Source: a virus (lineage: Duplodnaviria; Caudoviricetes). From it: a stretch of DNA of 64,000 nucleotides. Below are positions 2,595 through 58,288 of the stretch, one piece after another (positions within the stretch are counted from its first letter, which is position 1; every line of letters begins with the position of its first letter). The stretch covers positions 1 to 64,000 of IMG/VR virus record IMGVR_UViG_3300017766_003100; one strand, 5' to 3'. The notes beneath the pieces were generated by a model. The model saw only the letters and a list, made by a program, of their open reading frames with translations, made no database searches and was not told where the DNA came from. The position numbers and the translations under genes were made by a program.

Positions 2595-3404
2595 ATGTTA
2601 ACTATAAATAATTATCCCGATAAAAATGTTCTTCTTGGAGAAGTTCCTGGTAATATTGATGTTAATTTTGATAAAGCTCTTGAATCATTAATTAATTATT
2701 GGATTTCAAATAAACAATATAGTATTTCAATTAATAAAGTCCCAAATAATCCTAATGCTGTAACATTTGTAACAAATACTTGGACAAAAAAGGAAGATGG
2801 TAGTTGGCAGGCGGGTGACAATCAAGATTCAACATTTAAACAATGGGTTGAGGGTTCATATAATAAAAATGAACAAGTAAGTAAAAATGGAACATTTTCA
2901 GTTGATTTAACAAAAAAACAAATAATATTTACTCCCCCTACAACAACTACAACTGAAATAAATTGGAATAATTATCCTTGTGTAACTAGTAACCAAACTA
3001 AAAAAGAAATAAAAGCGAATGATGGTAGTATAAGTTATGAAATCAGTGGGTTTACATATTTTGGTAATGGTACTAAAAAAGATAAAAGTGGTGTCACATC
3101 TAAATATGAATGTACCGATAACAAAACAATATCTACAGGAACAACAAATTCTTTTAGTATTGGTTCTTCATCGTCTTCATCTTCTTCTTCATCAACTGGT
3201 TCAAACACAAGTGGTACACATCAAGAAGGTTTATCATATTGGGAAGGAGAACTTGAAAAAAAGGGTCCAGTAACTATAAAAACAGCGGTAAATCAAATTG
3301 GTAATTTAAATAAAGATGATAAAACAAAAGTTACTGAAAATACAATTACACATAAAATACTTAATGAACAAATTTTAAGAATAAAAAAACTAATGAATTT
3401 ATGA
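2595..3404 (+). CDS. Putative virion (head-cargo) protein with WxNYPCVTSN domain
   Basis: Thr/Ser-rich linkers; domain shared with ORF 28714; C-terminal ILNEQILRIKKLMNL. Confidence 0.7.
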   Translation: MLTINNYPDKNVLLGEVPGNIDVNFDKALESLINYWISNKQYSISINKVPNNPNAVTFVTNTWTKKEDGSWQAGDNQDSTFKQWVEGSYNKNEQVSKNGTFSVDLTKKQIIFTPPTTTTTEINWNNYPCVTSNQTKKEIKANDGSISYEISGFTYFGNGTKKDKSGVTSKYECTDNKTISTGTTNSFSIGSSSSSSSSSSTGSNTSGTHQEGLSYWEGELEKKGPVTIKTAVNQIGNLNKDDKTKVTENTITHKILNEQILRIKKLMNL

Positions 3405-4072
3405 CATTTATTAAACCAATTAAATATGGTCATTTGACAAATGAAACGTCAAAAAAACATATATACACCCCCGATAATGTTGATTCCGTTTTAGCACCAT
3501 ATGAAGGGGTTATTACAGATGTTAATTATTCAAAATGCGATGGGTTGATTCAAATTTCACATTTATTAAATGGTAAAGTATTTTATTCTGAAATATGTGG
3601 AGTGAATAAAAATATTTATGTTGGAAGTGGCATGAGTGTAAAGAAAGGAGATATAATAGGACAATGTGGGGGTAAAGATATTAAATTTGTTATTAAAGAT
3701 TCAAATAAGAATGAAATTGACTTACAACCTTTTTTTGTTGGTAAATTTGAACCTGATAAAAAGGATTTAGATAAAAAAGATTCGGATAAAGAAAAAAAAG
3801 AAAAAGGTTTAGGTAAACCATCGTCAGATAATGAAAAAAACAAAGAAAATAAAAAATACCAAAAAAATAAAGAAGACGATGAGGATGAAAACAAACCTTG
3901 GGATTTTACAAATTATGAACCAGGTATGACGTTACCAAATTTGTTTACAGCCGCAGCATTAACCCCATTTGATTTTATTGAAAAAGCTTTGAAACCAAAA
4001 AGAAAGGAAAAAAAAGAAGAAATTGAAAATTTACAAGAAGAACTAAAAAGAATAAAAAAACTATTAAAATAA
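3401..4072 (+). CDS. M23/LytM-like domain protein, probably non-catalytic, putative virion protein
   Basis: VLAPYEGVIT...SVKKGDIIGQCG resembles the M23 hybrid fold, but the HxH motif is absent; C-terminal LQEELKRIKKLLK. Confidence 0.55.
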   Translation: MTFIKPIKYGHLTNETSKKHIYTPDNVDSVLAPYEGVITDVNYSKCDGLIQISHLLNGKVFYSEICGVNKNIYVGSGMSVKKGDIIGQCGGKDIKFVIKDSNKNEIDLQPFFVGKFEPDKKDLDKKDSDKEKKEKGLGKPSSDNEKNKENKKYQKNKEDDEDENKPWDFTNYEPGMTLPNLFTAAALTPFDFIEKALKPKRKEKKEEIENLQEELKRIKKLLK

Positions 4073-4103
4073 AAAATCCCCATCTTAAAAAGTGGGGATT
4101 TTT
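4072..4103. terminator. Bidirectional terminator
   Basis: aaaaatcccc-N12-ggggattttt between convergent genes. Confidence 0.8.
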
Positions 4104-4124
4104 ACTTTTAGTTAGAAATTAAAA

Positions 4125-4289
4125 CTATTTCTCAACTTTAGCTGTGTCAACAGAAGGAGTTGTAACTGTAGTAGCTTCAACTTTAGTTGAATCTTCAGTT
4201 GTTTTAGTTTCTTCAGTTTTTGCAGTTGTTCCACAAGATGTGAAAACTAAGCTCAAAGTTACAATTGCTCCAAAAAGTACGTTTTTCAT
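4125..4289 (-). CDS. Small lipoprotein, 54 aa (absent from the ORF track)
   Basis: Own translation: MKNVLFGAIVTLSLVFTSCGTTAKTEETKTTEDSTKVEATTVTTPSVDTAKVEK*; lipobox FTS-C-G. Confidence 0.85.
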   Translation of the reverse strand: MKNVLFGAIVTLSLVFTSCGTTAKTEETKTTEDSTKVEATTVTTPSVDTAKVEK

Positions 4290-4423
4290 TTTTTTAAGTT
4301 TTTTTTAAGATTTAATTTTGTTTTAGTTATTGAACACTTAATAAATACACAATATGTTTTAATAAGTCAAATGTATTTAAAAAATTTTATTAAAAATTAT
4401 ACTTATAAAAAAAACTAAATAAT

Positions 4424-4780
4424 ATGAACTGGAAAAACACATTAATTATTGTGGTGTCTATTTTACTGATTGGAATGTTTTTGGGTTATTTGATAAGTTA
4501 TAACGCAAAAGAGACAAGAAGTCTCCAACAACAAATTATAGATGCTGAAAGAAAAGCAATTGATTCCTTACACAAGGAATTGGTAACAATGAAATCTGAG
4601 AGAGAAAAAATGGAATCTCAACTTGAATCACTAACTATGGGTATTAGTATTAGTGAATCAAACTTATCAACAAAAATAAACCAACTAAAAATTCAGAACA
4701 ATGTTAAGATTGATGCTATTACTAGCAGTACTAATGACCAACTCCTTGATGGTTTACGCGCAAGATACAATAAAAAATAA
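4424..4780 (+). CDS. Membrane-anchored coiled-coil protein (i-spanin-like)
   Basis: N-terminal TM (LIIVVSILLIGMFLGYLI) followed by heptad-rich region. Confidence 0.55.
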   Translation: MNWKNTLIIVVSILLIGMFLGYLISYNAKETRSLQQQIIDAERKAIDSLHKELVTMKSEREKMESQLESLTMGISISESNLSTKINQLKIQNNVKIDAITSSTNDQLLDGLRARYNKK

Positions 4781-5195
4781 TAAAGATTCTATTGAACCCA
4801 AAATCGATTTAATGGTCATCAACGGTGACACATTGTTTACAATGAATAGAAAGTTTGCTGAAAGAATTGCAATCGAACACGATTCATTAGAAATAATGGT
4901 AGACAAATTTAAAGAATGTAATGATGTGCTTTCAGCTAGTTTGGAACTTAAAGACCAATATAAAGTAGCTTTGGATAAATCAGAACAAGTTTCTGATATG
5001 TTAAGAAAGGAAGGTGATAAAAAAGATAAAATCATCAAGGGATATCAAACAATAGATGAGTCACAACAAAAGATTATTGGCGAATTACATAATGAATTCA
5101 AAAAAGCAAGAAATAGGAATAAATGGTTAACTGGATTAACCATAGGAGGTGTTTCAGTGGGGTTTACTTCAATTATCCTTTTACTACTAAAATAA
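4701..5195 (+). CDS. Signal-peptide, coiled-coil protein with C-terminal TM (spanin partner-like)
   Basis: Starts inside the previous gene in +1 frame (80-nt overlap); VYA|QD signal; C-terminal hydrophobic WLTGLTIGGVSVGFTSIILLLLK. Confidence 0.55.
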   Translation: MLRLMLLLAVLMTNSLMVYAQDTIKNNKDSIEPKIDLMVINGDTLFTMNRKFAERIAIEHDSLEIMVDKFKECNDVLSASLELKDQYKVALDKSEQVSDMLRKEGDKKDKIIKGYQTIDESQQKIIGELHNEFKKARNRNKWLTGLTIGGVSVGFTSIILLLLK

Positions 5196-5248
5196 GTTTA
5201 TTATATTTTTTAGGTCTTCGGACATAAAAAATTAAATAATTTATTATT

Positions 5249-5623
5249 ATGGGAATTACTTATTTTGCTTTAGGTATGCTCTCGATGTTGGCTCTATTAT
5301 TTGTTGGAGTTATTGTTTGGGGTTTGGTTAAGGTACTAAGAATTGAAAGGCAGATTGTTGCCATAAAAGAAAACCAAAAATTTGATATTGATAACGTTCA
5401 ACGTCAATTTGAGAATGTTTATAGGTCTATAAGTGACCATAGGGATGATTTTTCAAGGGGAGTTCACGAACTTACTAGAAGTACTAATCAACAATTTGAT
5501 AAAATGGAACAATATGAAATTAAACGTTTTGATGAATTGTTAACAATAATTCATAATAAATTTGATGACTCAATACGTTATACTGATAAAAGAGTTGACA
5601 AATCATATACTAAGCTTCAATAA
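5249..5623 (+). CDS. Membrane-anchored coiled-coil protein
   Basis: N-terminal hydrophobic helix of about 25 aa, then coiled coil. Confidence 0.65.
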   Translation: MGITYFALGMLSMLALLFVGVIVWGLVKVLRIERQIVAIKENQKFDIDNVQRQFENVYRSISDHRDDFSRGVHELTRSTNQQFDKMEQYEIKRFDELLTIIHNKFDDSIRYTDKRVDKSYTKLQ

Positions 5624-5700: not shown

Positions 5701-6264
5701 ATGAATATTATGAAAAAAAGAGACAAAAGAAGAATGGGAAGTTGTACTTGTAGTAATTGTGGGGTTGAGTTTGAAAAACCTTTAAGTGAGTTAAACCGTA
5801 ATGAAAAATTGGGTAGAAAGAATTTCTGTTCAAGGAGTTGTATAGGTCATTATAACACAGAAAGATTGTTAAATGTAAAAAATCGTTATGATATAAGTAA
5901 ACATTCTGGTAATGTTAGAGATAAATTCACAGGATTGAGAGATTTCTTAAAAAGAGTGAGAAACAGATTTAAGGAACACAATTTAGATTTGGATTATTTG
6001 AAAGAGTTGTGGGATAGTCAAAATGTTTGTGTTTATACTGGAGTTAAATTACAATTACCTAAAAATAAAGGTGTCAATAATCAAATATATACTGCATCAT
6101 TAGATAGAATTGATTCTAGTATCGGTTACATAAAAGGAAATGTTCAATTTATATCAATTGCCGCAAATCACGCAAAAAGTAATTTAAGTCACGATGAAAT
6201 GATTCTATTTTGTAATCTAATATATGAAAATAGAAAAATCCTTACCTATGGAGGTAAGGATTAA
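5701..6264 (+). CDS. Putative homing endonuclease (His-Me finger type) with N-terminal Zn ribbon
   Basis: CSNC...FCSRSC; VCVYTG; ASLDRIDSSIGYIKGNVQFISIAAN motif typical of phage free-standing endonucleases. Confidence 0.7.
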   Translation: MNIMKKRDKRRMGSCTCSNCGVEFEKPLSELNRNEKLGRKNFCSRSCIGHYNTERLLNVKNRYDISKHSGNVRDKFTGLRDFLKRVRNRFKEHNLDLDYLKELWDSQNVCVYTGVKLQLPKNKGVNNQIYTASLDRIDSSIGYIKGNVQFISIAANHAKSNLSHDEMILFCNLIYENRKILTYGGKD

Positions 6265-6725: not shown

Positions 6726-8126
6726 ATGAGTCCTAAAGAATTAGCTGAACAAGAATCTGAAACAATATTTGAAAATGACAATGTTAAGTTTATTGAAGTC
6801 CTAGGTTATCAAGCTATGGAATATTATGGTTCCGAATATTTAACTCAATATTATAGAGATAAAAAGAGTAGAGGTGCTAAAGTATTTTTAGTTATTGATA
6901 AAAAAGGTGATAAAAACTATGAAATATTTGAACCAAGATATGGTCAACCTCAAATACAAGATTTTGATGGGAAAATATGGGATTTTGGTGATGTTATTAA
7001 ACATCATCCTGATATTGCATTACAAGTTATTAATCTAACAGCTAGTAATACACCTTATGGTATTTTATTTAAAATTAAAAATGGTGTTGAGGTTGATAAA
7101 TGGCAATTAAGAGATGCTGATAATTGTTTTGGTAATTTAGTTTTCAATCAAAAAAATCCTGCTAAATCAATGATTGAGTTAGTTTTTGATGAAAGTGAAT
7201 TTTTTGATTTTTTTGAGTTTGCTGAAGGTGATTGGGATAAAAAAATACTTGAAAGTTTGTTTGGTGGTAGATATGGTGGGTATGGTTATGAAATTTTTGA
7301 TAATGATTGGGTTTATTACGAATGGAAAGATGGATATATTCTACGAAATCTTAACGATGAAAATGAAAAACTTCTTGAAAAGATACTAATACAAGCATCA
7401 CCAACAATCCTTGACCTTAAAGATGAAGGTGATGACAAGTATTATTCTAGTATTGCTGAATTCTTGGGTGATAATTTTAGTAGGGAAGCTGAAAATATTA
7501 TGGATGAATATCAAGATCAATTAAATGAAGGTGCTGATAAAAGAATAAAACAATATGCAATATCGGACATTGGAGACCCATTCAGAGATTATGGTGTACT
7601 ATTAAAAGGAGAGTCCTATTTTACTAATTATGTAACTACCGCTAATATACTTTTATCACTTTATCGTATTACAAGTGTAGATAAAACCAGTTCTATAAAG
7701 GAATTATTTGAAACATTAGGTAAAGATTTAAATATTATGATTGGTAGTTATAATGAAATTGGACGTGAATCTTGGGATATTGATACGGAAACATGGAATG
7801 ATGTTGTAAAAACTAACTTGGAAAGTATATTAGAGAATATTGCGGAAAATCCTGAAAAATATGAAGGAACAAGAAAATATGGTGAAGTTCTTCAAACATT
7901 AAATAAGATGGGATATGAAATTGGAAAATTTTATAAATTACCCTATAATAAATCAGACTCTTTCAGAATAACGAATGTAAATAAAGAAAACCTAAGAATT
8001 ACTTTAGAACATTTTATTGGAAATGAAGGAACTGTAAAAAGTTATTCTTTAGAAGAATTCAACAATTTTTTAAATTCACCAGAATTATTTGAACATTTAG
8101 TTAGAAAATTGAAAAGATTATTGTAA
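6726..8126 (+). CDS. Hypothetical acidic protein, possibly virion-associated
   Basis: 466 aa; TATTTAT motif 23 nt upstream; C-terminal LFEHLVRKLKRLL. Confidence 0.75.
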   Translation: MSPKELAEQESETIFENDNVKFIEVLGYQAMEYYGSEYLTQYYRDKKSRGAKVFLVIDKKGDKNYEIFEPRYGQPQIQDFDGKIWDFGDVIKHHPDIALQVINLTASNTPYGILFKIKNGVEVDKWQLRDADNCFGNLVFNQKNPAKSMIELVFDESEFFDFFEFAEGDWDKKILESLFGGRYGGYGYEIFDNDWVYYEWKDGYILRNLNDENEKLLEKILIQASPTILDLKDEGDDKYYSSIAEFLGDNFSREAENIMDEYQDQLNEGADKRIKQYAISDIGDPFRDYGVLLKGESYFTNYVTTANILLSLYRITSVDKTSSIKELFETLGKDLNIMIGSYNEIGRESWDIDTETWNDVVKTNLESILENIAENPEKYEGTRKYGEVLQTLNKMGYEIGKFYKLPYNKSDSFRITNVNKENLRITLEHFIGNEGTVKSYSLEEFNNFLNSPELFEHLVRKLKRLL

Positions 8127-8135: not shown

Positions 8136-8954
8136 ATGAAACACGATTACAATTTATTAAAAAAGGTTTTGTCCATACCTACGAAGACATACAAAGAGGA
8201 CTTAATGATTCAATTCCTGTGTGAATGGTTAACTGAAAACAACATCCCTTATCAAGTTGATAAGATGGGTAATGTTTATGCTGCCAAACAAACGGATGAG
8301 ATTGAATATTTCCCTTGTGTTGTTGCTCATACCGACACAGTTCACGAATTGGACACAATTAACATCCGAGAAATGATGTTACCCAATGACCAAAAAGAAT
8401 TAAAACCCGCATTAAAGGCTTTTAATGATGAAGGACAACCCACTGGTATTGGTGGAGATGACAAATGTGGTGTTTATGTATGTTTGGAATTATTGAGAAG
8501 TTTACCAAATATTAAGGCCGCATTTTTTGTTTCAGAAGAAACTGGTTGTCATGGTTCAAAAGAGGCTGATAAAGATTTTTTCTCTAATGTTGGATATGTT
8601 ATACAATTTGACGCACCTGGTAATTGGATGGTGAGTGAGTATTGTATGGGAGTTAAATTGTTTGATAAAAATTCAGAATTCTTCAATAAATGTGATAAAG
8701 TATTAACTGAGGGATTCAATAATAGAAACAAATATCAATCCCATCCATATACAGATGTTTATGCGTTAAAACAACAATTTGATTTCTCTTGTATAAATTT
8801 TGCGGTAGGATATTATAACTACCATACAAAACACGAATATGTAATTGTTGAGGATGTTTTCAATACTTTAGATATTGCCAACAAAATGATTGGGGATTTG
8901 GGGTATGTTAAATACCAAGAATCTATTAAAAATAATAGAAATTACATTTTTTAA
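8136..8954 (+). CDS. Zn-dependent peptidase, M20/M28 clan
   Basis: AHTDTVH, GGDDKCG, SEETG, FDAPG and YYNYHT metal-ligand motifs. Confidence 0.85.
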   Translation: MKHDYNLLKKVLSIPTKTYKEDLMIQFLCEWLTENNIPYQVDKMGNVYAAKQTDEIEYFPCVVAHTDTVHELDTINIREMMLPNDQKELKPALKAFNDEGQPTGIGGDDKCGVYVCLELLRSLPNIKAAFFVSEETGCHGSKEADKDFFSNVGYVIQFDAPGNWMVSEYCMGVKLFDKNSEFFNKCDKVLTEGFNNRNKYQSHPYTDVYALKQQFDFSCINFAVGYYNYHTKHEYVIVEDVFNTLDIANKMIGDLGYVKYQESIKNNRNYIF

Positions 8955-8979
8955 AGATATTTATTTAAAAATTTAAAAA

Positions 8980-9447
8980 ATGAAAAAAATAGTTTATTTA
9001 ACGGAATCAGATTTATATAATATAACTAAAAGGGTATTGAATGAGAATCTCATTGAAGAAGGTATATTTGATGGTATTACCAATATGTTTCAAGGTCTTA
9101 AAGGTGTATGGAGAGGTGAAGGATATGATTTTTTTTGGTATTTAAATTCTTTAAAAAATATGGTTAAAGAATTAAAAAAATTAGATAAACCAAACTTAAA
9201 GATAATGGATAAATTAACCGAACTAAAAAGTAAAATTTCAACTTCAAAAATGCCACCTGAAAAAAAAGAACAATTAATTTTTGAAATTGATAAGGCACTT
9301 GATAATTTTAATAAATATTCCGAACATATTGATAATTTAGAAAGGGTTGCGGATGAAAGACTAAAAGGAGTAAGTACTTATACAGACACACCTAAATCAG
9401 GTTTATCTAATGTAACAACGTCAGGAACAACTTTAACAGATTTTTAA
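8980..9447 (+). CDS. Putative head-cargo protein
   Basis: N-terminal MKKIVYLTESDLYNITKRVLNE; TATTTAT 22 nt upstream. Confidence 0.7.
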   Translation: MKKIVYLTESDLYNITKRVLNENLIEEGIFDGITNMFQGLKGVWRGEGYDFFWYLNSLKNMVKELKKLDKPNLKIMDKLTELKSKISTSKMPPEKKEQLIFEIDKALDNFNKYSEHIDNLERVADERLKGVSTYTDTPKSGLSNVTTSGTTLTDF

Positions 9448-9452
9448 AATAA

Positions 9453-9480
9453 AAAAAAGGGACTATTCAGTCCCTTTTTT
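9453..9480. terminator. Bidirectional terminator
   Basis: aaaaaagggact/attc/agtccctttttt between convergent genes. Confidence 0.8.
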
Positions 9481-11493: not shown

Positions 11494-11547
11494 AACTTTT
11501 TTTGATTAAATATAAATTAAAAAATGGTATTTTCAACTATGTGGGTA

Positions 11548-11560
11548 TGACAAATTGTCA
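11548..11560. promoter_or_regulatory. Palindrome TGACAA-A-TTGTCA, candidate operator
   Basis: Perfect 6-bp arms in the divergent clpC / UVR intergenic region. Confidence 0.4.
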
Positions 11561-11603
11561 GTTATTAATTTTTTGAACCTGACATTATTGATTATAAATT
11601 CAA

Positions 11604-12092
11604 TTGGTATATATTTGGTATAAAATGAAGAAACATAAACTTATAAAAAAAATATTTATGAATAAGAAAGAATTTTATAAAAGATTTGAAGAAATTGTAA
11701 ACGAAATTTTTGGTGAAAATCAAAGACAATCCACATCAATGGATGGATTTTTTAAAGGATTAAATAATGAAAATTTATCTGATGAAATAAAAAAAATCAG
11801 AGATTCAGTTAGAAAAAATAACGATGGTTTTTTTACATCCATTAGTTTTATTATAAATCCAAAAGAACAAGAAGTTGGTGAAAATTCTTTAAAGGATTTA
11901 AAGAATAAATTAGAACAATGTATTAAATCTCAAGAATTTGAAGAAGCTGCAAAACTTAGAGATAGAATTAAACAAATGGAAAATAATTCATCTAAGGTTA
12001 TGGATTTGAAAAAAGAAATGGAAATTGCTATTAAGGAACAAAATTTTGAAAGAGCAATTGAAATTAGAGATGAATTAAAAAAAATTAATTAA
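11604..12092 (+). CDS. Double UVR (UvrB/UvrC coiled-coil) motif protein, McsA-like Clp adaptor candidate
   Basis: KLEQCIKSQEFEEAAKLRDRIK and EMEIAIKEQNFERAIEIRDELK; real start probably ATG 11658, downstream of TATATTTG at 11610-11617. Confidence 0.8.
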   Translation: MVYIWYKMKKHKLIKKIFMNKKEFYKRFEEIVNEIFGENQRQSTSMDGFFKGLNNENLSDEIKKIRDSVRKNNDGFFTSISFIINPKEQEVGENSLKDLKNKLEQCIKSQEFEEAAKLRDRIKQMENNSSKVMDLKKEMEIAIKEQNFERAIEIRDELKKIN

Positions 12093-21864: not shown

Positions 21865-22581
21865 ATGAAATTCGGAATTATTAAATCAAAAATAGATTAC
21901 GTTTTAACAGAATCTTTCAAAAATGAAATTCTTTTTAAGGAAGAAATGAAATATTTCAAAAAAAATATTTTGGAAAATAAAACATTGAGTAAATTGTTTT
22001 ATTTGTACGATGAATTAAGTTCAAAGAAAAATATTGATAAAAAAATTGTTGATGATTATATCAATGGTTCAATAACTATTTACGAAAATCTAATTAATAA
22101 AATTAAATCAAATGATTTAAAAAAATTAAATTATTGGTTGGATGGAATTTCAGTTGAGAATACTTACGAAAATATTGATAATGTTTTCTCAACTGACATT
22201 TTGAAACTTGAGAGTAAAATCAAAAGTAAACAAATTCTAACTGAGTCTTTAACTCAGACTGAGAAAAAACAAAATGAGGTGATTAATATCCCAGTAAGTT
22301 CAATGATTAAATTGGCTAACAAAACATTGAATAACTATTTGAATACCTTAGATGAAGGTAGTAAAAAAGAATTAGTTAAATTATTATCTGAGGATGATAA
22401 TACATTAGAACAAGAATATAACACAATAAAAGAACAAGTGATTGGAAAACTTACCAATCACCAAAAAGTATCAGACAATGAAACATCATCTAAAATAGAT
22501 GAAACCATTACAAAAATAAAAAATGAAAAATACGATAAATTGACTTTTTTCAAATTGAAGGATTTGAATGAAAATCTTTAA
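21865..22581 (+). CDS. Head-module hypothetical protein
   Basis: Between portal and protease; helical; LTE motifs. Confidence 0.75.
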   Translation: MKFGIIKSKIDYVLTESFKNEILFKEEMKYFKKNILENKTLSKLFYLYDELSSKKNIDKKIVDDYINGSITIYENLINKIKSNDLKKLNYWLDGISVENTYENIDNVFSTDILKLESKIKSKQILTESLTQTEKKQNEVINIPVSSMIKLANKTLNNYLNTLDEGSKKELVKLLSEDDNTLEQEYNTIKEQVIGKLTNHQKVSDNETSSKIDETITKIKNEKYDKLTFFKLKDLNENL

Positions 22582-23352: not shown

Positions 23353-24072
23353 ATGAATTTGAGATTAATTAAACCTGGTGAAGTAGGTAAAGGTATTTTA
23401 ATAGAAAATGATGGATGGGTATCACCAAAAACTGAAATGAATTCCTATATAATGGAACAAAAAAGTTTTTTAGACCATTCTAAACCATTTGAATTTTATG
23501 CCGTATTACAAAAATACAATACACCAAATCGTAATGGTAGAATTTACCCTGAAAAAATATTAAAAAGGGAAGCTGAGAACTATAAAAAAATGATTCAAAA
23601 AGGGACTTCACTTTCCGAATTGAACCACCCTGAATCTTCTTTAATTGATTTAGATAGAGTTTCTCATATTATCACAGAAGTATGGTGGGAAGGTCCAATA
23701 TTGATGGGTAAACTTAAATTGTTGACATCACCAGGATTCCACGAGAGAGGAATTGTTTCAACTAAGGGTGATATGGCCGCAAATTATTTAAGACAAGGTG
23801 TAACCCTTGGTATATCTTCCCGTGGTGTTGGTTCATTAAAAAAGGTTGGGGAACAAAATGAGGTTCAAGATGATTTTGAATTAATTTGTTTTGACTTGGT
23901 TTCTTCACCATCAACACCTGGGGCATATCTTTTCTTAAACAAAGAAGATAGAGATATGTATTCAGAAAACTTGGAAGAAGACAAAAGAGTTGCAATGGAA
24001 AGAAATGTTGGAGACTTTGGTAACAAATCACTTGACTTAATGAAAAGATTAAACGATTATTTGGGTTATTAA
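23353..24072 (+). CDS. gp21: Prohead protease (T4 gp21-like)
   Basis: NRNGRIYP; ELNHP; ISSRGVGS; FDLVSSPSTPGA. Confidence 0.93.
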   Translation: MNLRLIKPGEVGKGILIENDGWVSPKTEMNSYIMEQKSFLDHSKPFEFYAVLQKYNTPNRNGRIYPEKILKREAENYKKMIQKGTSLSELNHPESSLIDLDRVSHIITEVWWEGPILMGKLKLLTSPGFHERGIVSTKGDMAANYLRQGVTLGISSRGVGSLKKVGEQNEVQDDFELICFDLVSSPSTPGAYLFLNKEDRDMYSENLEEDKRVAMERNVGDFGNKSLDLMKRLNDYLGY

Positions 24073-24482: not shown

Positions 24483-25982
24483 ATGACAGAAAAAAAATCA
24501 TTAGTTGAAGAAGCAATACTACAAATGAAAAATTTGGAAGAAGCTGTTGCTGAAAATGCAAAAGGAATACTTGCCTCTACTATGAGACAAGAAATCAAAG
24601 ATTTGGTAAAAGAATCTCTCAAAGAACAAGACGATGAAGAGATTGAAGATGAAGAAGGTGATGAAATGGACATAGAAGACGATGAAATGAACATTGAAGA
24701 CGATGAAATGGAAATGGAAGATGATGAAATGGACATAGAAGACGATGAAATGGGCATGGAAGAAGATGAAATGGATATGTCAGAACCTAATATGGAGGTG
24801 GATACAATAGACCTCACAAATCAACCAACTTCACAAGTTCTTAAAGTTTTCAAACTATTAAGTCCTGAAGATGAAATCGTAGTTACCAAAGATAACGCGG
24901 GTAACATAAACCTAAAAGACAATGAAAAAGAATATATGATTGTTGGTGAAGGTATGGACGAGTTTGATGAAGACTTATATGAGATGGATGATGAAAACTT
25001 ATATGAGATGGATGACGAGTTATATGAAATGGATGATGAAGTCTATGAAATGGATAACGAGTTATATGAAATGGATGATGAGTTTGAAATGGATAAATCT
25101 GACATTGAAAGTGTTTTCGAAAAAGAATTTAGTGAAGGAACAATCTACGAATTAGAAATTGAAGACGATTCTGATTACGAAGATTTAGGAGCTATGGATG
25201 AAGAATTTTATGAAGGTGACGAAGAATTTATGATGGAATCTAAAAAATCAAGAAAACCAAAAGGAATGGGTATGGGTTCTGCTTCTAAATTCAAATTCCC
25301 TAAACAAACTACTGATTTCAAACAACCTAAACAAAAAGAAGGTACTAAAGGTATTGGTATGGGTAAAGGTCCTAAAAAGGATATTTATAAATCTGATTCT
25401 CCAAGTTTTGATGGTGAATTCACTAAGAAACCTACAAAGTCTAAAGAGACAAAAGAAGGTATGATGACAAAACCTAAAAAGGTTGAAACCAAAGAAGCTT
25501 CACGTACTTTAGGTAATGGAAAATATTGGGGAAGAGAAGGTCTACCAAAACCAAAAGCAGCACCTCGTCACATCAGAAAAGAATCTGTTGAAACAGAAGA
25601 ATTAAATTTACTTAGAGAAAAAAATGAAGAGTACAGAAAAGCATTAAACATTTTTAGAAATAAACTTAATGAAGTTGCAATCTTCAATTCAAACTTGGCG
25701 TACGCAACTAGATTATTTACTGAACATTCAACTTCAAAACAAGAAAAAGTTAACATTCTAAAAAGATTTGATGGTGTAGAAACTCTTAAAGAATCTAAAA
25801 ATCTTTACAAAGTAATTAAAGACGAATTATCAAACACTAAGACTCAACAAGTTAATGAATCTGTTGAAAGAACAATACAAAAATCACCATCAACAGGTTC
25901 AGCAGTTAATTTGATTGAATCAAAAACTTACGAAAATCCTCAATTCTTGAGAATGAAGGATTTGATGTCAAAATTAAAATAA
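24483..25982 (+). CDS. Prohead core/scaffolding protein
   Basis: Directly upstream of MCP; highly acidic; coiled-coil C-terminal half ending FLRMKDLMSKLK. Confidence 0.8.
   Translation: MTEKKSLVEEAILQMKNLEEAVAENAKGILASTMRQEIKDLVKESLKEQDDEEIEDEEGDEMDIEDDEMNIEDDEMEMEDDEMDIEDDEMGMEEDEMDMSEPNMEVDTIDLTNQPTSQVLKVFKLLSPEDEIVVTKDNAGNINLKDNEKEYMIVGEGMDEFDEDLYEMDDENLYEMDDELYEMDDEVYEMDNELYEMDDEFEMDKSDIESVFEKEFSEGTIYELEIEDDSDYEDLGAMDEEFYEGDEEFMMESKKSRKPKGMGMGSASKFKFPKQTTDFKQPKQKEGTKGIGMGKGPKKDIYKSDSPSFDGEFTKKPTKSKETKEGMMTKPKKVETKEASRTLGNGKYWGREGLPKPKAAPRHIRKESVETEELNLLREKNEEYRKALNIFRNKLNEVAIFNSNLAYATRLFTEHSTSKQEKVNILKRFDGVETLKESKNLYKVIKDELSNTKTQQVNESVERTIQKSPSTGSAVNLIESKTYENPQFLRMKDLMSKLK
24660..24785 (+). 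repeat. Six in-frame 21-nt units (DEMDIED-like)
   Basis: GATGAAATGGACATAGAAGAC and variants in tandem. Confidence 0.9.
24975..25094 (+). repeat. Five in-frame LYEMDDE units plus a partial unit
   Basis: TTATATGAR ATGGATGAY GAR tandem array. Confidence 0.9.
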
Positions 25983-26016: not shown

Positions 26017-27879
26017 ATGGGAGCATTATTAGAAAGCGGTCTTGTTGGTAACATTGGTTTGAAACACCTTAAAGTTATCAAAGAAGATACTATTAACAAA
26101 TGGGATAGATTAGGATTCCTTGAAGGTCTTAAAGGCCACCTAAAAGAAAACGTAGCTCAGTTATATGAAAACCAAGCTTCTCACCTTATTAACGAAGCAA
26201 CTTCTGATGGGTCATCTGGTTCATTCGAAACTGTTGTATTCCCTATCGTAAGAAGAGTTTTCTCTAAATTGTTAGCTAACGATATCGTATCTGTACAAGC
26301 TATGAACTTACCTATCGGTAAATTGTTCTACTTCGTACCTAAAATCCAAGGTTATTCTGGTGCGACATTTACAGGACCTAATGGTTCACAAGATTATTCG
26401 GGAGAGCATTATTCACCTGTAGGTGGTCCTGGTAACTACCCTGGTAACCCTAACGCAGGTTACATTGGTTCAGGTTCTTTCACTAAAAACCTTTACGATT
26501 TATTCTATGAAGGTAGCGAACCTGGTTTAGAACCTGGTGGTTTATTTGATTACTCTAAAGGTCGTTGGACTGCTATTACTCAAGATACTTCATTATTGAA
26601 ATGGTCTAATGGTGCTTTAGAAAATTATGAAATCACTGAAACTACTCCAAATGTAAGAAAAATGATTATGAAAGTTTGTGGATGGAGTACTTATCCTGGT
26701 TATGGTAAACTTATCGGACCTGATGGTGCTGAGGTTGATTCTGAAACTTTCTTATCCGACCTTAAAATCGTTAGAAATACTATTTCAGCCGATACTAACA
26801 CTTGTGATACTATGGGTATTGGTACTGAGACTTATCCAAACTTATTATTTAGACTTGTAACACAACAATATGGTAAAGGTATTGTTAACCCAACATCAAC
26901 AAGAGTTCAAACTACATTCAACGGAGCTTCTCCTAACGCAAATGGTGGTTCTTATGATAGTATTTGTGACCAAAATGGTTGTATCTATTTAGAAGTTGAC
27001 TTATCTTGTCCTGCTTGTGCAACATGTGGTGATTCTTCTTTAGATGGTTACACTGGAACAACTATTTTCTCAGCTTCTTCTGCTGATTCATTTACAGCTG
27101 TTTGGAGAAGATACGAAGAACTTGAATTCGAAGATAAAATCGGTGAAGTTTCTTTCGACCTTGAATCAGTTACTGTTTCTGTTTCTGAAAGAAAACTTAG
27201 AGCTCAATGGTCTCCTGAGTTAGCTCAAGACGTTGCGGCATTCCATAACATCGATGCTGAAGCTGAATTAACTGCTCTTCTTTCTGAGCAAGTTGCAGCT
27301 GAAATCGATAGAGAAATCCTTCGTGACCTTAGAAAAGGTGCAGCTTGGAACTTGAGATGGGATTACAACGGATGGAGAAGAATTGCTCAAACAACTTCTT
27401 ACACTCAAAAAGACTGGAATCAAACGTTGATTACAGCTATCAACCAACTTTCAGCTCAAATCCACAAATCAACTCTTAGAGGTGGTGCTAACTGGATTGT
27501 TGTTTCTTCTGAGGTTTCTGCAATCTTTGATGACTTGGAATACTTCCACGTATCAAATGCTTCTCCTGAGCAAGACCAATACAACATGGGTATTGAAAGA
27601 GTAGGTACATTAGCTGGTAGATACCAAGTATATCGTGACCCTTACTTCCCACCTAACCAAGTGTTAATCGGACATAAAGGTACTTCACTTCTTGATACTG
27701 GTTACATCTACGCTCCGTATGTTCCACTTCAATTAACTCCAACAATGTATAATCCATTCAACTTTACTCCTATCAAGGGTATTATGACTAGATACGCTAA
27801 AAAAATGGTGAACAACCGCTTCTATGCGAGAATTACAGTTGATGGTGTTAGAACATTTGACTTACAAGAATTGAGATAG
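26017..27879 (+). CDS. gp23: Major capsid protein (T4 gp23-like)
   Basis: VQAMNLPIGKLFY; RKLRAQWSPELAQD; EIDREI; YAPYVPL; PIKGIMTRY; probable cleavage at LINE|A (residue 60). Confidence 0.96.
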   Translation: MGALLESGLVGNIGLKHLKVIKEDTINKWDRLGFLEGLKGHLKENVAQLYENQASHLINEATSDGSSGSFETVVFPIVRRVFSKLLANDIVSVQAMNLPIGKLFYFVPKIQGYSGATFTGPNGSQDYSGEHYSPVGGPGNYPGNPNAGYIGSGSFTKNLYDLFYEGSEPGLEPGGLFDYSKGRWTAITQDTSLLKWSNGALENYEITETTPNVRKMIMKVCGWSTYPGYGKLIGPDGAEVDSETFLSDLKIVRNTISADTNTCDTMGIGTETYPNLLFRLVTQQYGKGIVNPTSTRVQTTFNGASPNANGGSYDSICDQNGCIYLEVDLSCPACATCGDSSLDGYTGTTIFSASSADSFTAVWRRYEELEFEDKIGEVSFDLESVTVSVSERKLRAQWSPELAQDVAAFHNIDAEAELTALLSEQVAAEIDREILRDLRKGAAWNLRWDYNGWRRIAQTTSYTQKDWNQTLITAINQLSAQIHKSTLRGGANWIVVSSEVSAIFDDLEYFHVSNASPEQDQYNMGIERVGTLAGRYQVYRDPYFPPNQVLIGHKGTSLLDTGYIYAPYVPLQLTPTMYNPFNFTPIKGIMTRYAKKMVNNRFYARITVDGVRTFDLQELR

Positions 27880-28713: not shown

Positions 28714-29736
28714 ATGAAAAAATTATATTATTTAGACGAAGAAGAGAAAAATAGAATATTAAATTTACACGAAAGTAGTACAAGAAAACAATATTTGATG
28801 AATGAGCAATCACTTGGTAGTATGGCTTATAGTACGGCAGGTGGTGCTCAAACAGGAGCCGTTATTGGTGCTCATTTTGGTGGTGTTGGTGCAATACCAG
28901 GTGCCGTTATTGGTGGAGCAATAGGATTAATATCAGGTATAGCTAGTACTATGAATCGAGATGCGTTTATTAAAACTATTACTGAAGTTTGTAGTAAAGG
29001 TGGTACACCAACATTAGACGCTGGACCATTAATGGACATAGCAGAAAAATTAAATGGTCTCATTAACACTACTAATTATTTGGGTGGTGGTTATGCGACT
29101 ACCGAAAGTAGAGCTGGTATAAAAAGTACATTAGCGACTATTCCATCTATCCCAGATTTATGTGGTGTTATGAAAGAATACAAAGAATTATATCAAATAG
29201 ATTTACTTGCTGACCTTAAAAGAGAAATTTATTATGATAAATATTGGAGTGACACAGTACAAGTTCCATTAACAAAAGCTATTAGACTTTCTAAAGCAGC
29301 AACAGCAAAAGCCGCAGAAGCTGCAAAACAAAAACCAGCAGAAACATTAGTTGGTTGGGAAAATTATCCTTGTGTTACATCAAATCCAAACGCAAAAAAA
29401 GGTTCACTTAAAGATGGTACGGTTGCTTATAATATAAATGGTGAAACATATTATGGTGGTGGTCGTAAAAGAGGTGTTGATGGTAAAATGAGTAGTTATT
29501 ATTGTGGTACTGATGGAACAATTAAAATAGGTGACAAACCAACAACGCAAAGTACAACAAGCGGATTTGCTGGAACTGGTGCTCCTGTATCTGGTATGGG
29601 TTCAATACTAATTTCACCACAACAAGTTTCATCACTTAGAACAAGTGCTGGTTTAACTGGAACAGGAAATTCATTATCTCAACAAGATATAAATGACCTT
29701 TACAATATGATTAATAAATTACCTAACAAACAATAA
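28714..29736 (+). CDS. Putative head-cargo protein with glycine zipper and WxNYPCVTSN domain
   Basis: N-terminal LDEEEKNRILNLHE...LMNE; GAQTGAVIGAHFGGVGAIPGAVIGGAIGLISG. Confidence 0.7.
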   Translation: MKKLYYLDEEEKNRILNLHESSTRKQYLMNEQSLGSMAYSTAGGAQTGAVIGAHFGGVGAIPGAVIGGAIGLISGIASTMNRDAFIKTITEVCSKGGTPTLDAGPLMDIAEKLNGLINTTNYLGGGYATTESRAGIKSTLATIPSIPDLCGVMKEYKELYQIDLLADLKREIYYDKYWSDTVQVPLTKAIRLSKAATAKAAEAAKQKPAETLVGWENYPCVTSNPNAKKGSLKDGTVAYNINGETYYGGGRKRGVDGKMSSYYCGTDGTIKIGDKPTTQSTTSGFAGTGAPVSGMGSILISPQQVSSLRTSAGLTGTGNSLSQQDINDLYNMINKLPNKQ

Positions 29737-29741: not shown

Positions 29742-30215
29742 ATGAAATCATTATACATAACAGAAAGTGAAAGACAACAAATATTAAATTTACATAAAAG
29801 TAAAACGTTGTCTGAACAAGTACCAGCGGCAGGAGCTGCAGCACCCACATCTACACCCACACCCGCAACTGGAGCAGCACCAGCTGCAGGAACAACACCA
29901 GCTGCGGTAACCAATTATACTGTTCAACAATTACAACAACTTTTAATAAGTAAAGGATATAATGTTGGTTCGGCTGATAATCAATTAGGAAAAGGTACTC
30001 TTGCTCAAATTGAGGCAGCAGTTAAAGCTGCTAAAAGTGGTACTCCCGCAGCACCTGCAACTACAACATCTTTACCCGCTCCAGTAATAGCGCCATTGGA
30101 CACTAAGAAGGTAACTGGATTACAAACTGATGGTTCAGGAAAAGTTACAGGTGTATCAACTACAACAACTGGTGGAAATACCCCAACAACAGATGCTGGT
30201 TCTATGACAACTTAA
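29742..30215 (+). CDS. Putative head-cargo protein with peptidoglycan-binding (PGBD-like) helix bundle
   Basis: N-terminal ITESERQQILNLHK; VQQLQQLLISKGYNVGSADNQLGKGTLAQI. Confidence 0.65.
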   Translation: MKSLYITESERQQILNLHKSKTLSEQVPAAGAAAPTSTPTPATGAAPAAGTTPAAVTNYTVQQLQQLLISKGYNVGSADNQLGKGTLAQIEAAVKAAKSGTPAAPATTTSLPAPVIAPLDTKKVTGLQTDGSGKVTGVSTTTTGGNTPTTDAGSMTT

Positions 30216-32458: not shown

Positions 32459-33613
32459 ATGTATAATAGAAGACTATTAATATCTGAAGACGAGAAAAAA
32501 CACATTAAAAATTTATACGGATTAATATTAGAACAAGAAAATTTACCTGGTGAAAAAATCAAAATTGATTTTGGGGATTTGTATGGTGATGGTAAGTATC
32601 TAATTAAGAATAGTAACAAATTCAAAGAAAAATTAGATAGTTCTTTATTACCTTTTGTTCAAAAAAATCCTGGTGTTCCTTTAACTATTAAAGTTCTTGG
32701 TGGTGAATCGGCAACACCTAATTATGATTATGAACTAAATGATAATCAGGGGAAACCTGATTTTTATTTGGCTAAAAAAAGAAGAAGTGTTATGGTTGAC
32801 TGGTTAACTAATTATTTTAATAATTCAGAAATTGAACCTAAACCTATTGTTGACAACTCACCAAATAAAGAAGGTGTAAATGTATTTAGAGGACGTACTG
32901 GTAACGAAGCAAGAGACCGTTTTGTTGACGTGGTTATAAATGCTGAAGCTCCTGGTACTTGTTTAGTTGGATTAAAAATTGAAGTTATTTATGAAAATGG
33001 TAATTCATCACCTGAGTTCCCTTGTAGAGGAGGTTTTATGGAGTATAACAAAATGTTAAAGAAAGAAGTTCCTAGAGTTCATAAATGTGATGAAGCTATA
33101 TTTAACGTTTTATTAAATGATGTAAATATTGGACAAGTAAATCTTAATAATAAAGTTGATGGAGGTAGTAGAAATGGTGTTGTTGAAGTTACAAGAGCTC
33201 AAGCTTTAGAAATTGCTAAACTAGGTAAAAATACTATTGTATTAAGTTTACAATGTGTACTACCTAATTGTCATTCAGATGTTGCTGAAATTAGGATTAC
33301 TAACAAGAATGGAGTACTTTATCATAGTTGCACACCAACACTACAATCAAGAGGTGATAGTAAAGTTAATGACCTTTTAATATTAGATAAATGTGGTACT
33401 AAGATAGTTCAAAGAAGTACGAAAGAAGTTGCAGGAACAGGTGAAACTAAAGTAAAACAAGAATATGGTTCGCAATATTGGGATGCGGTAGCTGCAAATA
33501 AACAACTTAAAAAATTGGCGGATGGTTCTTATGAAGTTTTAACTGATAAACTTGCTGACCCAACTGGTAAACGATATAAAAAAGGTGAGATAATTCCAAA
33601 ACCATCATTTTAA
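32459..33613 (+). CDS. Putative head-cargo protein with degenerate OmpA-like domain
   Basis: N-terminal ISEDEKKHIKNLYGLILE; IKVLGGESATPN...LAKKRRSVMVDWL resembles the OmpA_C pattern. Confidence 0.55.
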   Translation: MYNRRLLISEDEKKHIKNLYGLILEQENLPGEKIKIDFGDLYGDGKYLIKNSNKFKEKLDSSLLPFVQKNPGVPLTIKVLGGESATPNYDYELNDNQGKPDFYLAKKRRSVMVDWLTNYFNNSEIEPKPIVDNSPNKEGVNVFRGRTGNEARDRFVDVVINAEAPGTCLVGLKIEVIYENGNSSPEFPCRGGFMEYNKMLKKEVPRVHKCDEAIFNVLLNDVNIGQVNLNNKVDGGSRNGVVEVTRAQALEIAKLGKNTIVLSLQCVLPNCHSDVAEIRITNKNGVLYHSCTPTLQSRGDSKVNDLLILDKCGTKIVQRSTKEVAGTGETKVKQEYGSQYWDAVAANKQLKKLADGSYEVLTDKLADPTGKRYKKGEIIPKPSF

Positions 33614-33652: not shown

Positions 33653-34123
33653 TTAACAATAAGGTGGTGAACAACGTTTTTTTCCATCTAATCCAGGTTT
33701 TGTTCCTTTACAAACTTGAACGGCATAACCATTCGCATAAGCACTGGGATAGACTTTAAATTTTGATTTGGCAGCAGTTTTACCTCTTGAACATAGTTTT
33801 GTTCCAGTTTTCTTTTTTCCTTCCATCATAACCATATCTTCTTCATCGTCATAGAACTCATCACTATATTGAGTTTCGTTCATCAGAAAGTCAAATACTT
33901 GGTCTAAGTTTTCTTTTGCCGTTGCAATATGGTCATCAGCCCAATCGTGACCACCTTGAAGTATTTTTTCTACTTCCATTGGGTCTAATTCTAATAACAA
34001 TTGTGCTTGTCTTACCATTTGTTCTAGATTACTGAAAAACATATAGTTTTGTACTTTTCCATAATCTTTTTCGTTAACTATTTTTTTAACGAGTTGGTTG
34101 AGTTGTGATTCAGTTATTCTCAT
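33653..34123 (-). CDS. Putative head-cargo protein with basic C-terminal domain
   Basis: MRITESQLNQLVKKIVNE; MME then KLCSRGKTAAKSKFKVYPSAYANGYAVQVC. Confidence 0.7.
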   Translation of the reverse strand: MRITESQLNQLVKKIVNEKDYGKVQNYMFFSNLEQMVRQAQLLLELDPMEVEKILQGGHDWADDHIATAKENLDQVFDFLMNETQYSDEFYDDEEDMVMMEGKKKTGTKLCSRGKTAAKSKFKVYPSAYANGYAVQVCKGTKPGLDGKKRCSPPYC

Positions 34124-34129: not shown

Positions 34130-34309
34130 TTAATTATTTAATCCATTAGGACCTCCTAATGTTACTGCGTTTAATTGTACTATAGCGTCACCTTGACCAT
34201 TAGTCCAAGTTGGGTGTGGTGGTACTACACTAGTGACAGTTTCACCTGTAGTACAAGGACAACAGACAACACAGATTGTTGATTCACTATTTGCTGAAAT
34301 TGTTGACAT
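34130..34309 (-). CDS. 59-aa stand-alone paralogue of the C-terminus of ORF 34340-37096 (absent from the ORF track)
   Basis: MSTISANSESTICVVCCPCTTGETVTSVVPPHPTWTNGQGDAIVQLNAVTLGGPNGLNN*; TATTTAT 22 nt upstream (34331-34325). Confidence 0.8.
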   Translation of the reverse strand: MSTISANSESTICVVCCPCTTGETVTSVVPPHPTWTNGQGDAIVQLNAVTLGGPNGLNN

Positions 34310-56383: not shown

Positions 56384-56444
56384 AATTTATATATTTTATC
56401 CCAAATAATAACAATAAATTTTTATTAATTCAATAGAATAGGGA

Positions 56445-56491
56445 TAAAAAAACGAAACCCCACAACTTGAATTTCTTCAGGGGATGTGGGG
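56445..56491 (-). terminator. Probable terminator (minus strand)
   Basis: ccccaca...tgtgggg stem with inner cttgaa/ttcagg, then T-rich tail on the minus strand. Confidence 0.55.
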
Positions 56492-56515
56492 AATAAGATA
56501 TTAAATTATTAAAAA

Positions 56516-57124
56516 TTATTTTACTTTTTTAATACGTGTGACTTTACCTTCAAATATATGACTACCAACTCTGAATTGGAATACGTCATTTGTTTTACTA
56601 TCACTTTCAATAAGTAAACCATTTTCACCTAATACTTCTTCTATAGTTTCTCTAATCATATCTTTCAATGTGTTCTTATCAAAGTTTAAGTTTGTATTTT
56701 GATACTTTGAAGATTCTTGAACTTGTTGTTTTTGTCCTTGGAATGGTGACTTATTATTTGCCACATCATTTTTCATTAATCTTGACGCTTTCTCAATTAA
56801 ATCATTACTTAACACTGAAGAACTTCCCATACTACTTGGTTGTGTAATTGGATGTTCAATCATAAGTCTTTTAATTTCATCAGGTAACTTAGATTGCAAA
56901 ATTCTTTCTTTTGATGGTAATTCATTATTAGGTCTAATCGTAGGTTGTGATTCCATCATTAAATCTTGTGGTAGATTATAATTAATATTTGGAGTTTGAA
57001 ACTCTTGTAATTCAGGAGTTTGTGGTATATTTCCTTGGACGTGTCCTCTAGGAATTTGATTATGAACATCCATTATTTTTTTGGACATTGCTAATTTTTG
57101 TAATAAACTATTTTCGTTTAACAT
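56516..57124 (-). CDS. Hypothetical Gln/Pro-rich protein
   Basis: 202 aa; starts MLNE; VQE and LIE motifs. Confidence 0.7.
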   Translation of the reverse strand: MLNENSLLQKLAMSKKIMDVHNQIPRGHVQGNIPQTPELQEFQTPNINYNLPQDLMMESQPTIRPNNELPSKERILQSKLPDEIKRLMIEHPITQPSSMGSSSVLSNDLIEKASRLMKNDVANNKSPFQGQKQQVQESSKYQNTNLNFDKNTLKDMIRETIEEVLGENGLLIESDSKTNDVFQFRVGSHIFEGKVTRIKKVK

Positions 57125-57127
57125 ATA

Positions 57128-57520
57128 TTAAATATTTTCATCAAATTTTACATTTATTATAACCGTTTTCATTGTCTTATCACCATTTGGGTTATAATTT
57201 GGTCTTGGCGTTGCAAACTTATCACCAGTTTTAGAAAATGATAAGATTTTATCTAATCTAAACAATCTCCATCCTGGTATAGGTCTTGTCCCTAATAATC
57301 CTCTATGACTCGCACCTTCAATATCCCAAGCTCTCAAAACTGGATTACCTGCTTTACTATAACTAAAACAAACTGGTTCAATTTCACGTAAACCTTTTCC
57401 ACCAGGTTCATCACCATCATAATAGATGACAATCCTATTTTTATTTCTGATAGCATCAATAACACTTTCAATTGAGGCTACTTCTAAAATAAGAGACTTA
57501 GCAATATTGTAAAGTTTCAT
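57128..57520 (-). CDS. Stand-alone WYL-domain protein
   Basis: IVIYY...REIEP...LRAWD...WRLFRLDKI. Confidence 0.75.
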   Translation of the reverse strand: MKLYNIAKSLILEVASIESVIDAIRNKNRIVIYYDGDEPGGKGLREIEPVCFSYSKAGNPVLRAWDIEGASHRGLLGTRPIPGWRLFRLDKILSFSKTGDKFATPRPNYNPNGDKTMKTVIINVKFDENI

Positions 57521-57813
57521 TATGCACTTGGGGTTGTATATGGTTTGTTTGATTGATATTCATTTATCACTATTTGAGCTCTTCTTTCAACAATATCTTG
57601 TATTGCACCTGCGGTCTCATTGTACACATCAAGGAAATCACCAGTTCCTTTTCCTTGTGCATCACCATCGGCTAAAGCATCAGGATTTACCGCTGAATAT
57701 GCGTTACCCGTTGAGAAATCATTTTTAGGTAATAGTTTTTTTCTTTCAGCTTCAGCTATTGCTGATAAGTCGTTCTTGGGTTGTTCGAAATTTAATGGTT
57801 CTGTAACTGCCAT
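57520..57813 (-). CDS. Hypothetical protein
   Basis: 97-aa ORF. Confidence 0.7.
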   Translation of the reverse strand: MAVTEPLNFEQPKNDLSAIAEAERKKLLPKNDFSTGNAYSAVNPDALADGDAQGKGTGDFLDVYNETAGAIQDIVERRAQIVINEYQSNKPYTTPSA

Positions 57814-57814
57814 A

Positions 57815-58288
57815 TTACATTATTTTTTTTAATAAATTATTTATCCTTTTAAGGCTTTCAGTAACTTCCAAATTATATTTTGCAAGTGTACTTTTATGTT
57901 CTTGACTTGTTCTTAAATCGTGACCAACGTTTTGGTCTTTTTCGTGTGGTTGAATAAATTGATTAGGTAGAACTACTGACCTTATTTCTTTTGTTCTATA
58001 CGCGTCATCTCTCATTGAGTTTAAAGTTTGATTTACCCAATTCTTCATATAATCACCCCCATTTAATACAAATGGTTTGTCAGTATTATTACCTTGAAAA
58101 TTATCAAAGAAATTTTTGATTCTTTTCAATTGTTGGTAAGTAACATAACCCGTATCTCTAAGTTCTCTGTTTCTCCTAAATCCCTCAACACTATCATCGG
58201 CATCAGGTACAACGTCATTACATTGTTTAAGATAAACAACAACTTCTTCAGGTAATTCTATCTTTTCTCCGTATAAATCTTTATTCAC
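57815..58288 (-). CDS. Putative head-cargo protein
   Basis: C-terminal VTESLKRINNLLKKIM. Confidence 0.65.
   Translation of the reverse strand: MNKDLYGEKIELPEEVVVYLKQCNDVVPDADDSVEGFRRNRELRDTGYVTYQQLKRIKNFFDNFQGNNTDKPFVLNGGDYMKNWVNQTLNSMRDDAYRTKEIRSVVLPNQFIQPHEKDQNVGHDLRTSQEHKSTLAKYNLEVTESLKRINNLLKKIM

Follow-up and report, generated by a model that had tools for sequence, protein, structure and literature searches.

Recurrent terminal helices on diverse proteins of an uncultured T4-type phage as candidate capsid-loading tags

Why should proteins with little else in common end, or begin, in a short amphipathic helix that resembles the tail of a phage scaffold? The question is raised by the first 64,000 nucleotides of the IMG/VR record IMGVR_UViG_3300017766_003100 (Duplodnaviria; Caudoviricetes), a stretch referred to here in its full length as the window; it is AT-rich (GC about 29%) and cultured phages are only distantly similar to it. 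A preliminary description of the window had proposed that a single terminal motif, E-x3-[RHQ]-I-x2-L, serves as a targeting tag at either end of a protein, that it mimics the scaffold tail, and that it loads diverse cargo into the prohead, where a gp21-type protease clips it off. In the present analysis, the motif was followed through the window and its relatives and was separated into a C-terminal tail (tail A) and two kinds of N-terminal leader (leaders B and C). We give an even chance to the reading that these tags are portable peptides by which proteins dock and are taken into the prohead during its assembly, a reading in which we infer the binding, the enclosure and the cleavage.

The peptides quoted in the preliminary description were all recovered in the open reading frame (ORF) and at the terminus given for them; ORFs are designated hereafter by their first coordinate. 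The motif in its original wording had five matches in about 19,000 residues, every one of them terminal, against 0.86 matches in total and 0.12 terminal matches in shuffled proteomes, where at least four terminal matches occurred in 0 of 200 shuffles. In about 20,000 residues, the form R[IM][KN][KND]L[LM] had four matches, all within the last 10 residues of a protein, namely of 2595, 3401, the putative scaffold and 57815. Tail A can be written h-x-E-x-h-x-[RK]-[IM]-[KN]-x-h-h (h, hydrophobic; x, any residue) and closes 2595, 3401 and 57815, with a looser form in 6726. The C-terminal tails concerned are:

3357..3401 (+), C-terminal tail of ORF 2595-3404 (ILNEQILRIKKLMNL), the top profile match
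4028..4069 (+), C-terminal tail of ORF 3401-4072 (NLQEELKRIKKLLK), an M23-like peptidase with a weak Pfam M23 match
57818..57865 (-), C-terminal tail of ORF 57815-58288 (VTESLKRINNLLKKIM), kept in 38 orthologs
8085..8123 (+), C-tail of ORF 6726-8126 (LFEHLVRKLKRLL), basic and amphipathic but looser, with its helix in another register
25908..25979 (+), invariant C-tail of the putative scaffold ORF 24483-25982 (NLIESKTYENPQFLRMKDLMSKLK), with 78 orthologs

Leave-one-out profiles placed the tails of 2595, 3401 and 57815 as the top non-training positions among about 18,900. As an independent test, a profile trained solely on the C-tails of three window families was run on three related contigs taken in full (163, 66 and 128 kb; 402 ORFs, 100,571 positions). 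At a score of at least 16, the 12 top matches among these positions comprised eight C-terminal ones, lying 1-4 residues from the C-end, and four N-terminal ones, lying at residues 4-7, with none internal; shuffled proteomes yielded 0.03 matches at this score, and terminal positions make up 8.8% of all. The N-terminal copies in the relatives start MNLQEQLNRIQEMMG and MKNNLNEELNRLKFLLGY. Similarly, a HMMER tail model gave 11 C-terminal and three N-terminal matches at E below 0.05 and no internal match. Because the profile and HMMER matches above threshold in the relatives were exclusively terminal, and those of the profile far above the level of the shuffles, tail A is a real motif that is confined to protein termini and can be used at both of them, in agreement with what had been claimed for the tag.

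Tail A is retained in orthologs at identities as low as 26-60%. The orthologs of 2595 (P0008-P0014, 40-81% identity) retain E[EQ]..R[IM]KKLM[NK]L, while those of 3401 (P0001-P0007) keep KLNEE-h-x-[RK]IKK-h-h-K beside a variable Lys/Glu-rich linker; the latter orthologs, seven in number, came from a large protein database, and the viral-contig search gave none. The orthologs of 57815 retain [IV][TK]E-x-[LV]-x-RIN-x-h-h-KKII, and homologs of about 26% identity still finish in GLFEE-x-x-R[IM]KKLML. The tail of 6726, SPELFE-x-L-[VI]-[RK]KLKK-[ML]-L, is itself retained in at least 30 orthologs; it had been counted as a copy of the motif but lies in another helical register and obtains no score with the tail profile, and a distant homolog in the relative G002 is without the terminal tail.

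In AlphaFold2 (AF2) models, 57815 and 3401 have the same predicted layout: a domain modelled with confidence, then a disordered linker, then a terminal helix that stays unpacked. These parts span residues 1-105, 106-133 and 134-156 in 57815; in 3401 the folded domain covers 1-112 and the helix 204-222, with the linker between them. Residues 51-63 of the 57815 family form a conserved internal helix, YQQL[KG]RIKN[WF]FDN, which resembles the family's own C-tail; no other strong look-alike was seen at an internal position in the window. Searches of PHROGs and Pfam assigned no function to 2595, 57815 or 6726, a search of the ESM Atlas returned uncharacterised viral clusters only, and Foldseek with the 57815 model found no PDB match and, in BFVD, only uncharacterised or weak matches.

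With reference to the putative scaffold, its last 24 residues, NLIESKTYENPQFLRMKDLMxKLK, are near-invariant in the 78 orthologs at an overall identity of about 50%. The family has orthologs in about 600 viral metagenome contigs (45-65% identity) and is encoded by two of the three related contigs; by tblastn against phage records, an uncultured phage was its only match. The profile comparisons spoke for the claim that the tags mimic this tail. The scaffold tail was the best non-training match of the cargo-tail profile among 18,844 window positions (15.0, against 12.4 for the next), and the scaffold tails of the relatives ranked 14th and 17th of the 100,571 positions; conversely, a scaffold-tail profile placed the 2595 tail joint second in the window, and distant 2595 orthologs have RMKKLM where the scaffold has RMKDLM. 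HMMER did not bear it out, the tail model matching the scaffold at an insignificant E of 2.9, and the core of similarity was about eight residues. The likeness of the cargo tails to the scaffold tail thus appears short and moderate. The scaffold further contains long acidic EMDDE-type repeats and two motif-like segments, a conserved one near the N-end (EEAILQMKNLEE) and another around residue 116 (VLKVFKLLSPED).

Tail A is found on widely differing proteins. Three adjoining genes of G002 bear it; two of them are alike only in linker and tail and differ in their N-terminal domains, one of which is VanY (2.7e-22), and the third is M23-like. Another relative has the same tail on a protein of 806 amino acids, and VanY alone was named when the tagged proteins of the relatives were compared with Pfam. 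Contrary to the earlier statement that the tagged proteins have no other similarity, 2595 and 28714 have a domain in common, residues 120-203 of the former being homologous to residues 211-297 of the latter (E 1e-14). This domain carries the C-tail in 2595 and leader B in 28714, so that both tags would serve to deliver it.

The window has the following N-terminal leaders:

28714..28806 (+), leader B of ORF 28714-29736 (MKKLYYLDEEEKNRILNLHESSTRKQYLMNE), a module of about 33 amino acids common to otherwise unrelated proteins
29742..29816 (+), leader B of ORF 29742-30215, matched by the leader-B hidden Markov model (HMM) at E 1e-7
32459..32533 (+), weak leader-B-like N-terminus of ORF 32459-33613, kept in orthologs, with an HMM E-value of 2.5
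8980..9045 (+), leader C of ORF 8980-9447 (MKKIVYLTESDLYNITKRVLNE), found on different proteins in relatives
34070..34123 (-), leader C of ORF 33653-34123 (MRITESQLNQLVKKIVNE), whose orthologs keep a basic amphipathic leader up to h-x-E while the sequence drifts
57482..57520 (-), leader C of the WYL-like ORF 57128-57520 (MKLYNIAKSLILE), kept in the G002 and G003 orthologs

Leader B has the form MKKLYFLDEEEK-x-RILNLHE-x-ATK-x-QYL-x-E, and an HMM trained on other loci gave eight significant matches in independent data, all of which begin at residues 1-4. Leader C is basic and amphipathic and closes in h-x-E, as in LTESDL-x-RIVKRVINE or M-x-NIIKKILKE; it was matched inside the first 20 residues in three of three cases in the window and in 11 of 16 in relatives. 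For both leaders the similarity between carriers is confined to the first 33-36 residues, and the alignment of 8980 with its G002 homolog is limited to residues 1-34. Judged by these comparisons, leaders B and C are two further real families, portable and N-terminal. They had been joined with the tails in one shared code, but neither the profiles nor HMMER link them to the tail, and the leaders of 28714, 29742 and 32459 and those of 8980, 33653 and 57128 are sequence families of their own. By eye, leaders and tail have h-T-E-S-(x)-L-x-R-I in common, and the unification with tail A into a single code stays unproven. As for 33653-34123, its residues 108-150 form a Cys/Tyr-rich C-terminal segment (phrog_27331) that recurs in Pelagibacter and cyanobacterial phages and that in podophage P-SCSP2 exists as a small ORF, flanked by the genes for scaffold and capsid.

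The preliminary description had named a gp21-type protease and (L/I/V/M)-x-E triplets, and both are present. All 19 tagged C-ends carry the triplet, compared with 42% of the remaining C-ends, and so do all 29 tagged N-ends (at least two sites in 24 of the 29), compared with 63% of the remaining N-ends, although part of this enrichment arises by construction from the definition of the tags. The N-terminal helices are usually flanked on both sides by the triplet. The protease belongs to a T4-type head module, listed here in gene order:

17131-18894, large terminase, T4-type head module
19099-21843, portal, T4-type head module
21865 and 22860, small genes at the core position, between portal and prohead protease
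22531..22578 (+), conserved C-tail of the core-module ORF 21865-22581 (YDKLTFFKLKDLNENL), with 51 orthologs, family-specific
23353..24072 (+), prohead protease of the gp21 family (Pfam Peptidase_S77 1.1e-22), with a conserved C-tail of its own, NKSLDLMKRLNDYLGY, at 24022-24069
24483-25982 (+), putative scaffold ORF of 499 amino acids, acidic and helical, at the scaffold position
26017..27879 (+), major capsid protein of the Gp23 family (Pfam Gp23 3e-73), candidate docking partner

The capsid protein is 73-90% identical among the relatives and has a conserved I-N-E|A where removal of the propeptide is expected. It is about 100 residues longer than T4 gp23, and its variable insertion holds an invariant cluster of cysteines (C317, C331, C334, C337), possibly a metal site or a disulfide. 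The portal gene contains an intein with an HNH endonuclease (about 19423-20340; Pfam Intein_splicing 1.7e-13, HNH_3) before the Portal_T4 domain. The tails of the protease and of 21865 were considered as instances of the same motif and withdrawn, there being no profile cross-match with the cargo tails. In a comparison with T4-type and cyanophage proteins, the C-ends of gp21 and gp22 of RB27 and S-ShM2 were amphipathic and had no clear common motif.

The octamer RTATTTAT precedes 17 genes (e.g. 17131, 21865, 23353, 24483, 28714 and 58281), structural and tagged ones, by 12-31 nucleotides before the start codon, mostly 22-28; in the case of the terminase, 21865, the protease and the scaffold, the distance is 22-28. 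The octamer heads every unit of tagged genes and was not found in the glycosyltransferase/dUTPase/exonuclease block; it probably represents the lineage's late promoter. The tail-A gene 57815 and the leader-C gene 57128 lie in one late unit, 58281-56516.

In the docking reading, an amphipathic helix on a flexible linker, at the extreme C- or N-end of diverse late proteins, would act as the docking peptide. It would bind to the scaffold core or to the inside of the capsid shell, in the manner expected of the scaffold's own C-tail, so that cell-wall hydrolases, glycine-zipper proteins and small uncharacterised domains would be enclosed as cargo, and the gp21-type protease would then cut at the adjoining [LIVM]-x-E and free the tag. 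Tail A, leader B and leader C probably have this function in common. A single pair complex prediction of the capsid protein with 57815 scored 0.00, which counts neither for nor against docking. The wider proposal is put forward tentatively, as somewhat short of an even prospect: that a lineage of T4-like phages marks about one tenth of its genes, several cell-wall hydrolases among them, with a small set of portable terminal helices that the protease can remove. The set would make up a general code for capsid loading, and one of the helices would work at either end and copy the capsid-binding tail of the scaffold.

Several observations weigh against capsid loading. Position-weight profiles and HMMER link neither leader B nor leader C with tail A; the tail model does not reach the scaffold significantly in HMMER; and reverse profiles built from the protease and 21865 tails matched no cargo tail. 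By tblastn, 57815 had no homolog among 50,697 phage records. The h-x-E that precedes the helix belongs to the motif and may serve binding rather than cleavage, and downstream of 3401 come three membrane proteins, an arrangement that resembles a lysis cassette and keeps its order in G003.

This last arrangement leads to the view that the C-tails are lysis-linked amphipathic helices targeting the membrane or envelope, which would hold signal-less hydrolases (M23, VanY) and their partners at the inner membrane or aid in its disturbance. Several bearers of the tail are peptidoglycan hydrolases, the tail itself is cationic and amphipathic and is preceded by another hydrophobic segment, and the 2595-3401 pair precedes the following genes:

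4424-4780, membrane protein with N-terminal transmembrane (TM) segment and coiled coil
4701-5195, membrane protein with signal peptide and C-terminal TM segment
5249-5623, membrane protein with N-terminal TM segment

The region 3401-5623 is, judged by its gene content, a possible lysis cassette. Short cationic amphipathic C-terminal helices are likewise found in MinD, FtsA and some endolysins, comparable to those on the signal-less cell-wall hydrolases here. However, tail A also occurs on non-hydrolases (the 57815 family, the 806-residue protein) and at N-termini, it resembles the scaffold tail, and its E(-4), R(0) and I/M(+1) are invariant across unrelated families, which suggests a specific protein partner and sets it apart from the MinD/FtsA type, as do its N-terminal form and scaffold likeness. 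Generic membrane helices usually tolerate much more sequence variation. Membrane targeting is regarded as unlikely, though it is the chief rival of capsid loading and a live one.

Alternatively, only leaders B and C could be capsid-targeting propeptides of the T4 internal-protein type, with tail A unrelated to them and its scaffold likeness due to chance. This would agree with the failure of the profiles to link the three classes and with the cargo propeptides of T4 and SPN3US, which are N-terminal, a C-terminal one being found only on the protease (PMC10052503). Nevertheless, tail A is present at N-termini too, one domain is carried by either tag, and tail-A and leader-C genes are placed in the same late unit, 58281-56516. 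Such a restriction to the leaders seems rather unlikely.

A further view is that the tags dock on some other hub, such as the ClpB/ClpC-like unfoldase with its UVR-motif partner, a chaperone, or the protease itself, for which they would be an extended recognition element, or else that they are short oligomerisation helices. A double-AAA+ Clp-type ATPase, a UVR-motif protein and an M42/M28-like peptidase are encoded in the region of 6726 and 8980, h-x-E is built into the motif, and the scaffold has motif-like segments near its N-end and internally. On the other hand, we know of no Clp tag of this appearance, and the strict terminal position, the late units and the likeness to the scaffold tail fit head assembly better, making another hub quite improbable. 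Lastly, a compositional artefact of a K/I/L/N/E-rich proteome encoded by AT-rich DNA would account for superficially similar C-ends such as that of exonuclease 54454, which finishes in HIVKKLKDLK, yet it is extremely improbable and effectively refuted by the scan of related contigs, in which 12 matches against 0.03 in shuffled proteomes were all terminal, and by the retention of the motif across orthologs.

Docking in the prohead, the reading preferred here, can be compared with several known systems. The sorting of proteins into the T4-type prohead core has been called "mysterious" (PMC9958956), the only defined signal being the capsid-targeting sequence of T4, a 10-residue N-terminal peptide on two internal proteins; for IPII and IPIII, that paper cites Mullaney and Black 1996. 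The likeness lies in a short N-terminal peptide running to (L/I)-x-E, in its place on cargo that is non-essential, and in the presence of a gp21-family protease in the phage; leader C (13-22 amino acids) is the closest match. In contrast to T4, at least three sequence classes occur here on many more proteins, one of them C-terminal and, in relatives, at either end, and none resembles MKTYQEFIAE in sequence.

A C-terminal helix-and-hook containing an RIIK motif is common to CpmB and the scaffold of phage 80alpha, where it attaches to the capsid protein (PMC5644958), namely to its N-arm. As in 80alpha and the SaPI1 CpmB, a basic-motif amphipathic helix stands here at the extreme C-terminus of the scaffold and of unrelated proteins, which may have it in common. 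In being basic, amphipathic, tethered by a flexible linker in the 57815 and 3401 models and placed 1-4 residues from the C-end, tail A agrees with the capsid-binding helices of the scaffold type, to which that of the P22 scaffold also belongs. CpmB is moreover one competitor from a satellite element that changes capsid size, while in the window many proteins of the phage itself are concerned, including enzymes. In phiKZ-like giant phages such as SPN3US, many head proteins are cut after x-x-E by a gp21-like protease, and there is large protein cargo (PMC10052503); their propeptides are N-terminal, mostly 111-254 residues long and without a shared short motif, only the protease having a C-terminal one.

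The tags are also reminiscent of a bacterial arrangement. Encapsulin cargo-loading peptides are short and terminal (C or N), sit on flexible linkers and bring diverse enzymes into an HK97-fold shell. Encapsulins, however, are bacterial compartments that lack a scaffold, a protease and DNA and differ in their peptide consensus. Membership of the encapsulins was ruled out, the shell being of the T4 Gp23 family with portal, terminase, scaffold and protease, and the comparison is an analogy only.

If capsid loading is the true function, terminal targeting peptides for HK97-fold shells would be nothing new in themselves, and the unusual features would be the use at either end, the mimicry of the scaffold and the breadth of the cargo. 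The tags would then be nature's phage equivalent of the peptides that load cargo into encapsulins. With short, recognisable tags on many cargo proteins, T4-type core sorting would become open to testing, especially with a scaffold match and use at either terminus; the set of ejected proteins of uncultured phages would become predictable from sequence, and new tags for loading proteins into phage capsids would be at hand. Should the hydrolase tails target membranes instead, it would be a smaller yet useful finding on lysis in these phages.

Other features of the window may be noted. The M42/M28-like peptidase, the ClpB/ClpC-like double-AAA+ ATPase (9463-11493, minus strand) and the protein with two UVR motifs (11604-12092) lie together at 8136-12092, and the ATPase and the UVR protein may be a phage-encoded unfoldase with its adaptor. 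Two homing-endonuclease-like ORFs are present: one of EndoVII/HNH type at 27988-28668, between the capsid gene and the leader-B genes, and a Cys-rich one at 5701-6264, which is not at the syntenic site of G003. Finally, an ORF of 59 amino acids at 34130-34309 duplicates the last 30 or so residues of the adjoining 918-residue protein encoded at 34340-37096 (PHPxWTNGQG...TLGGPNGLN).

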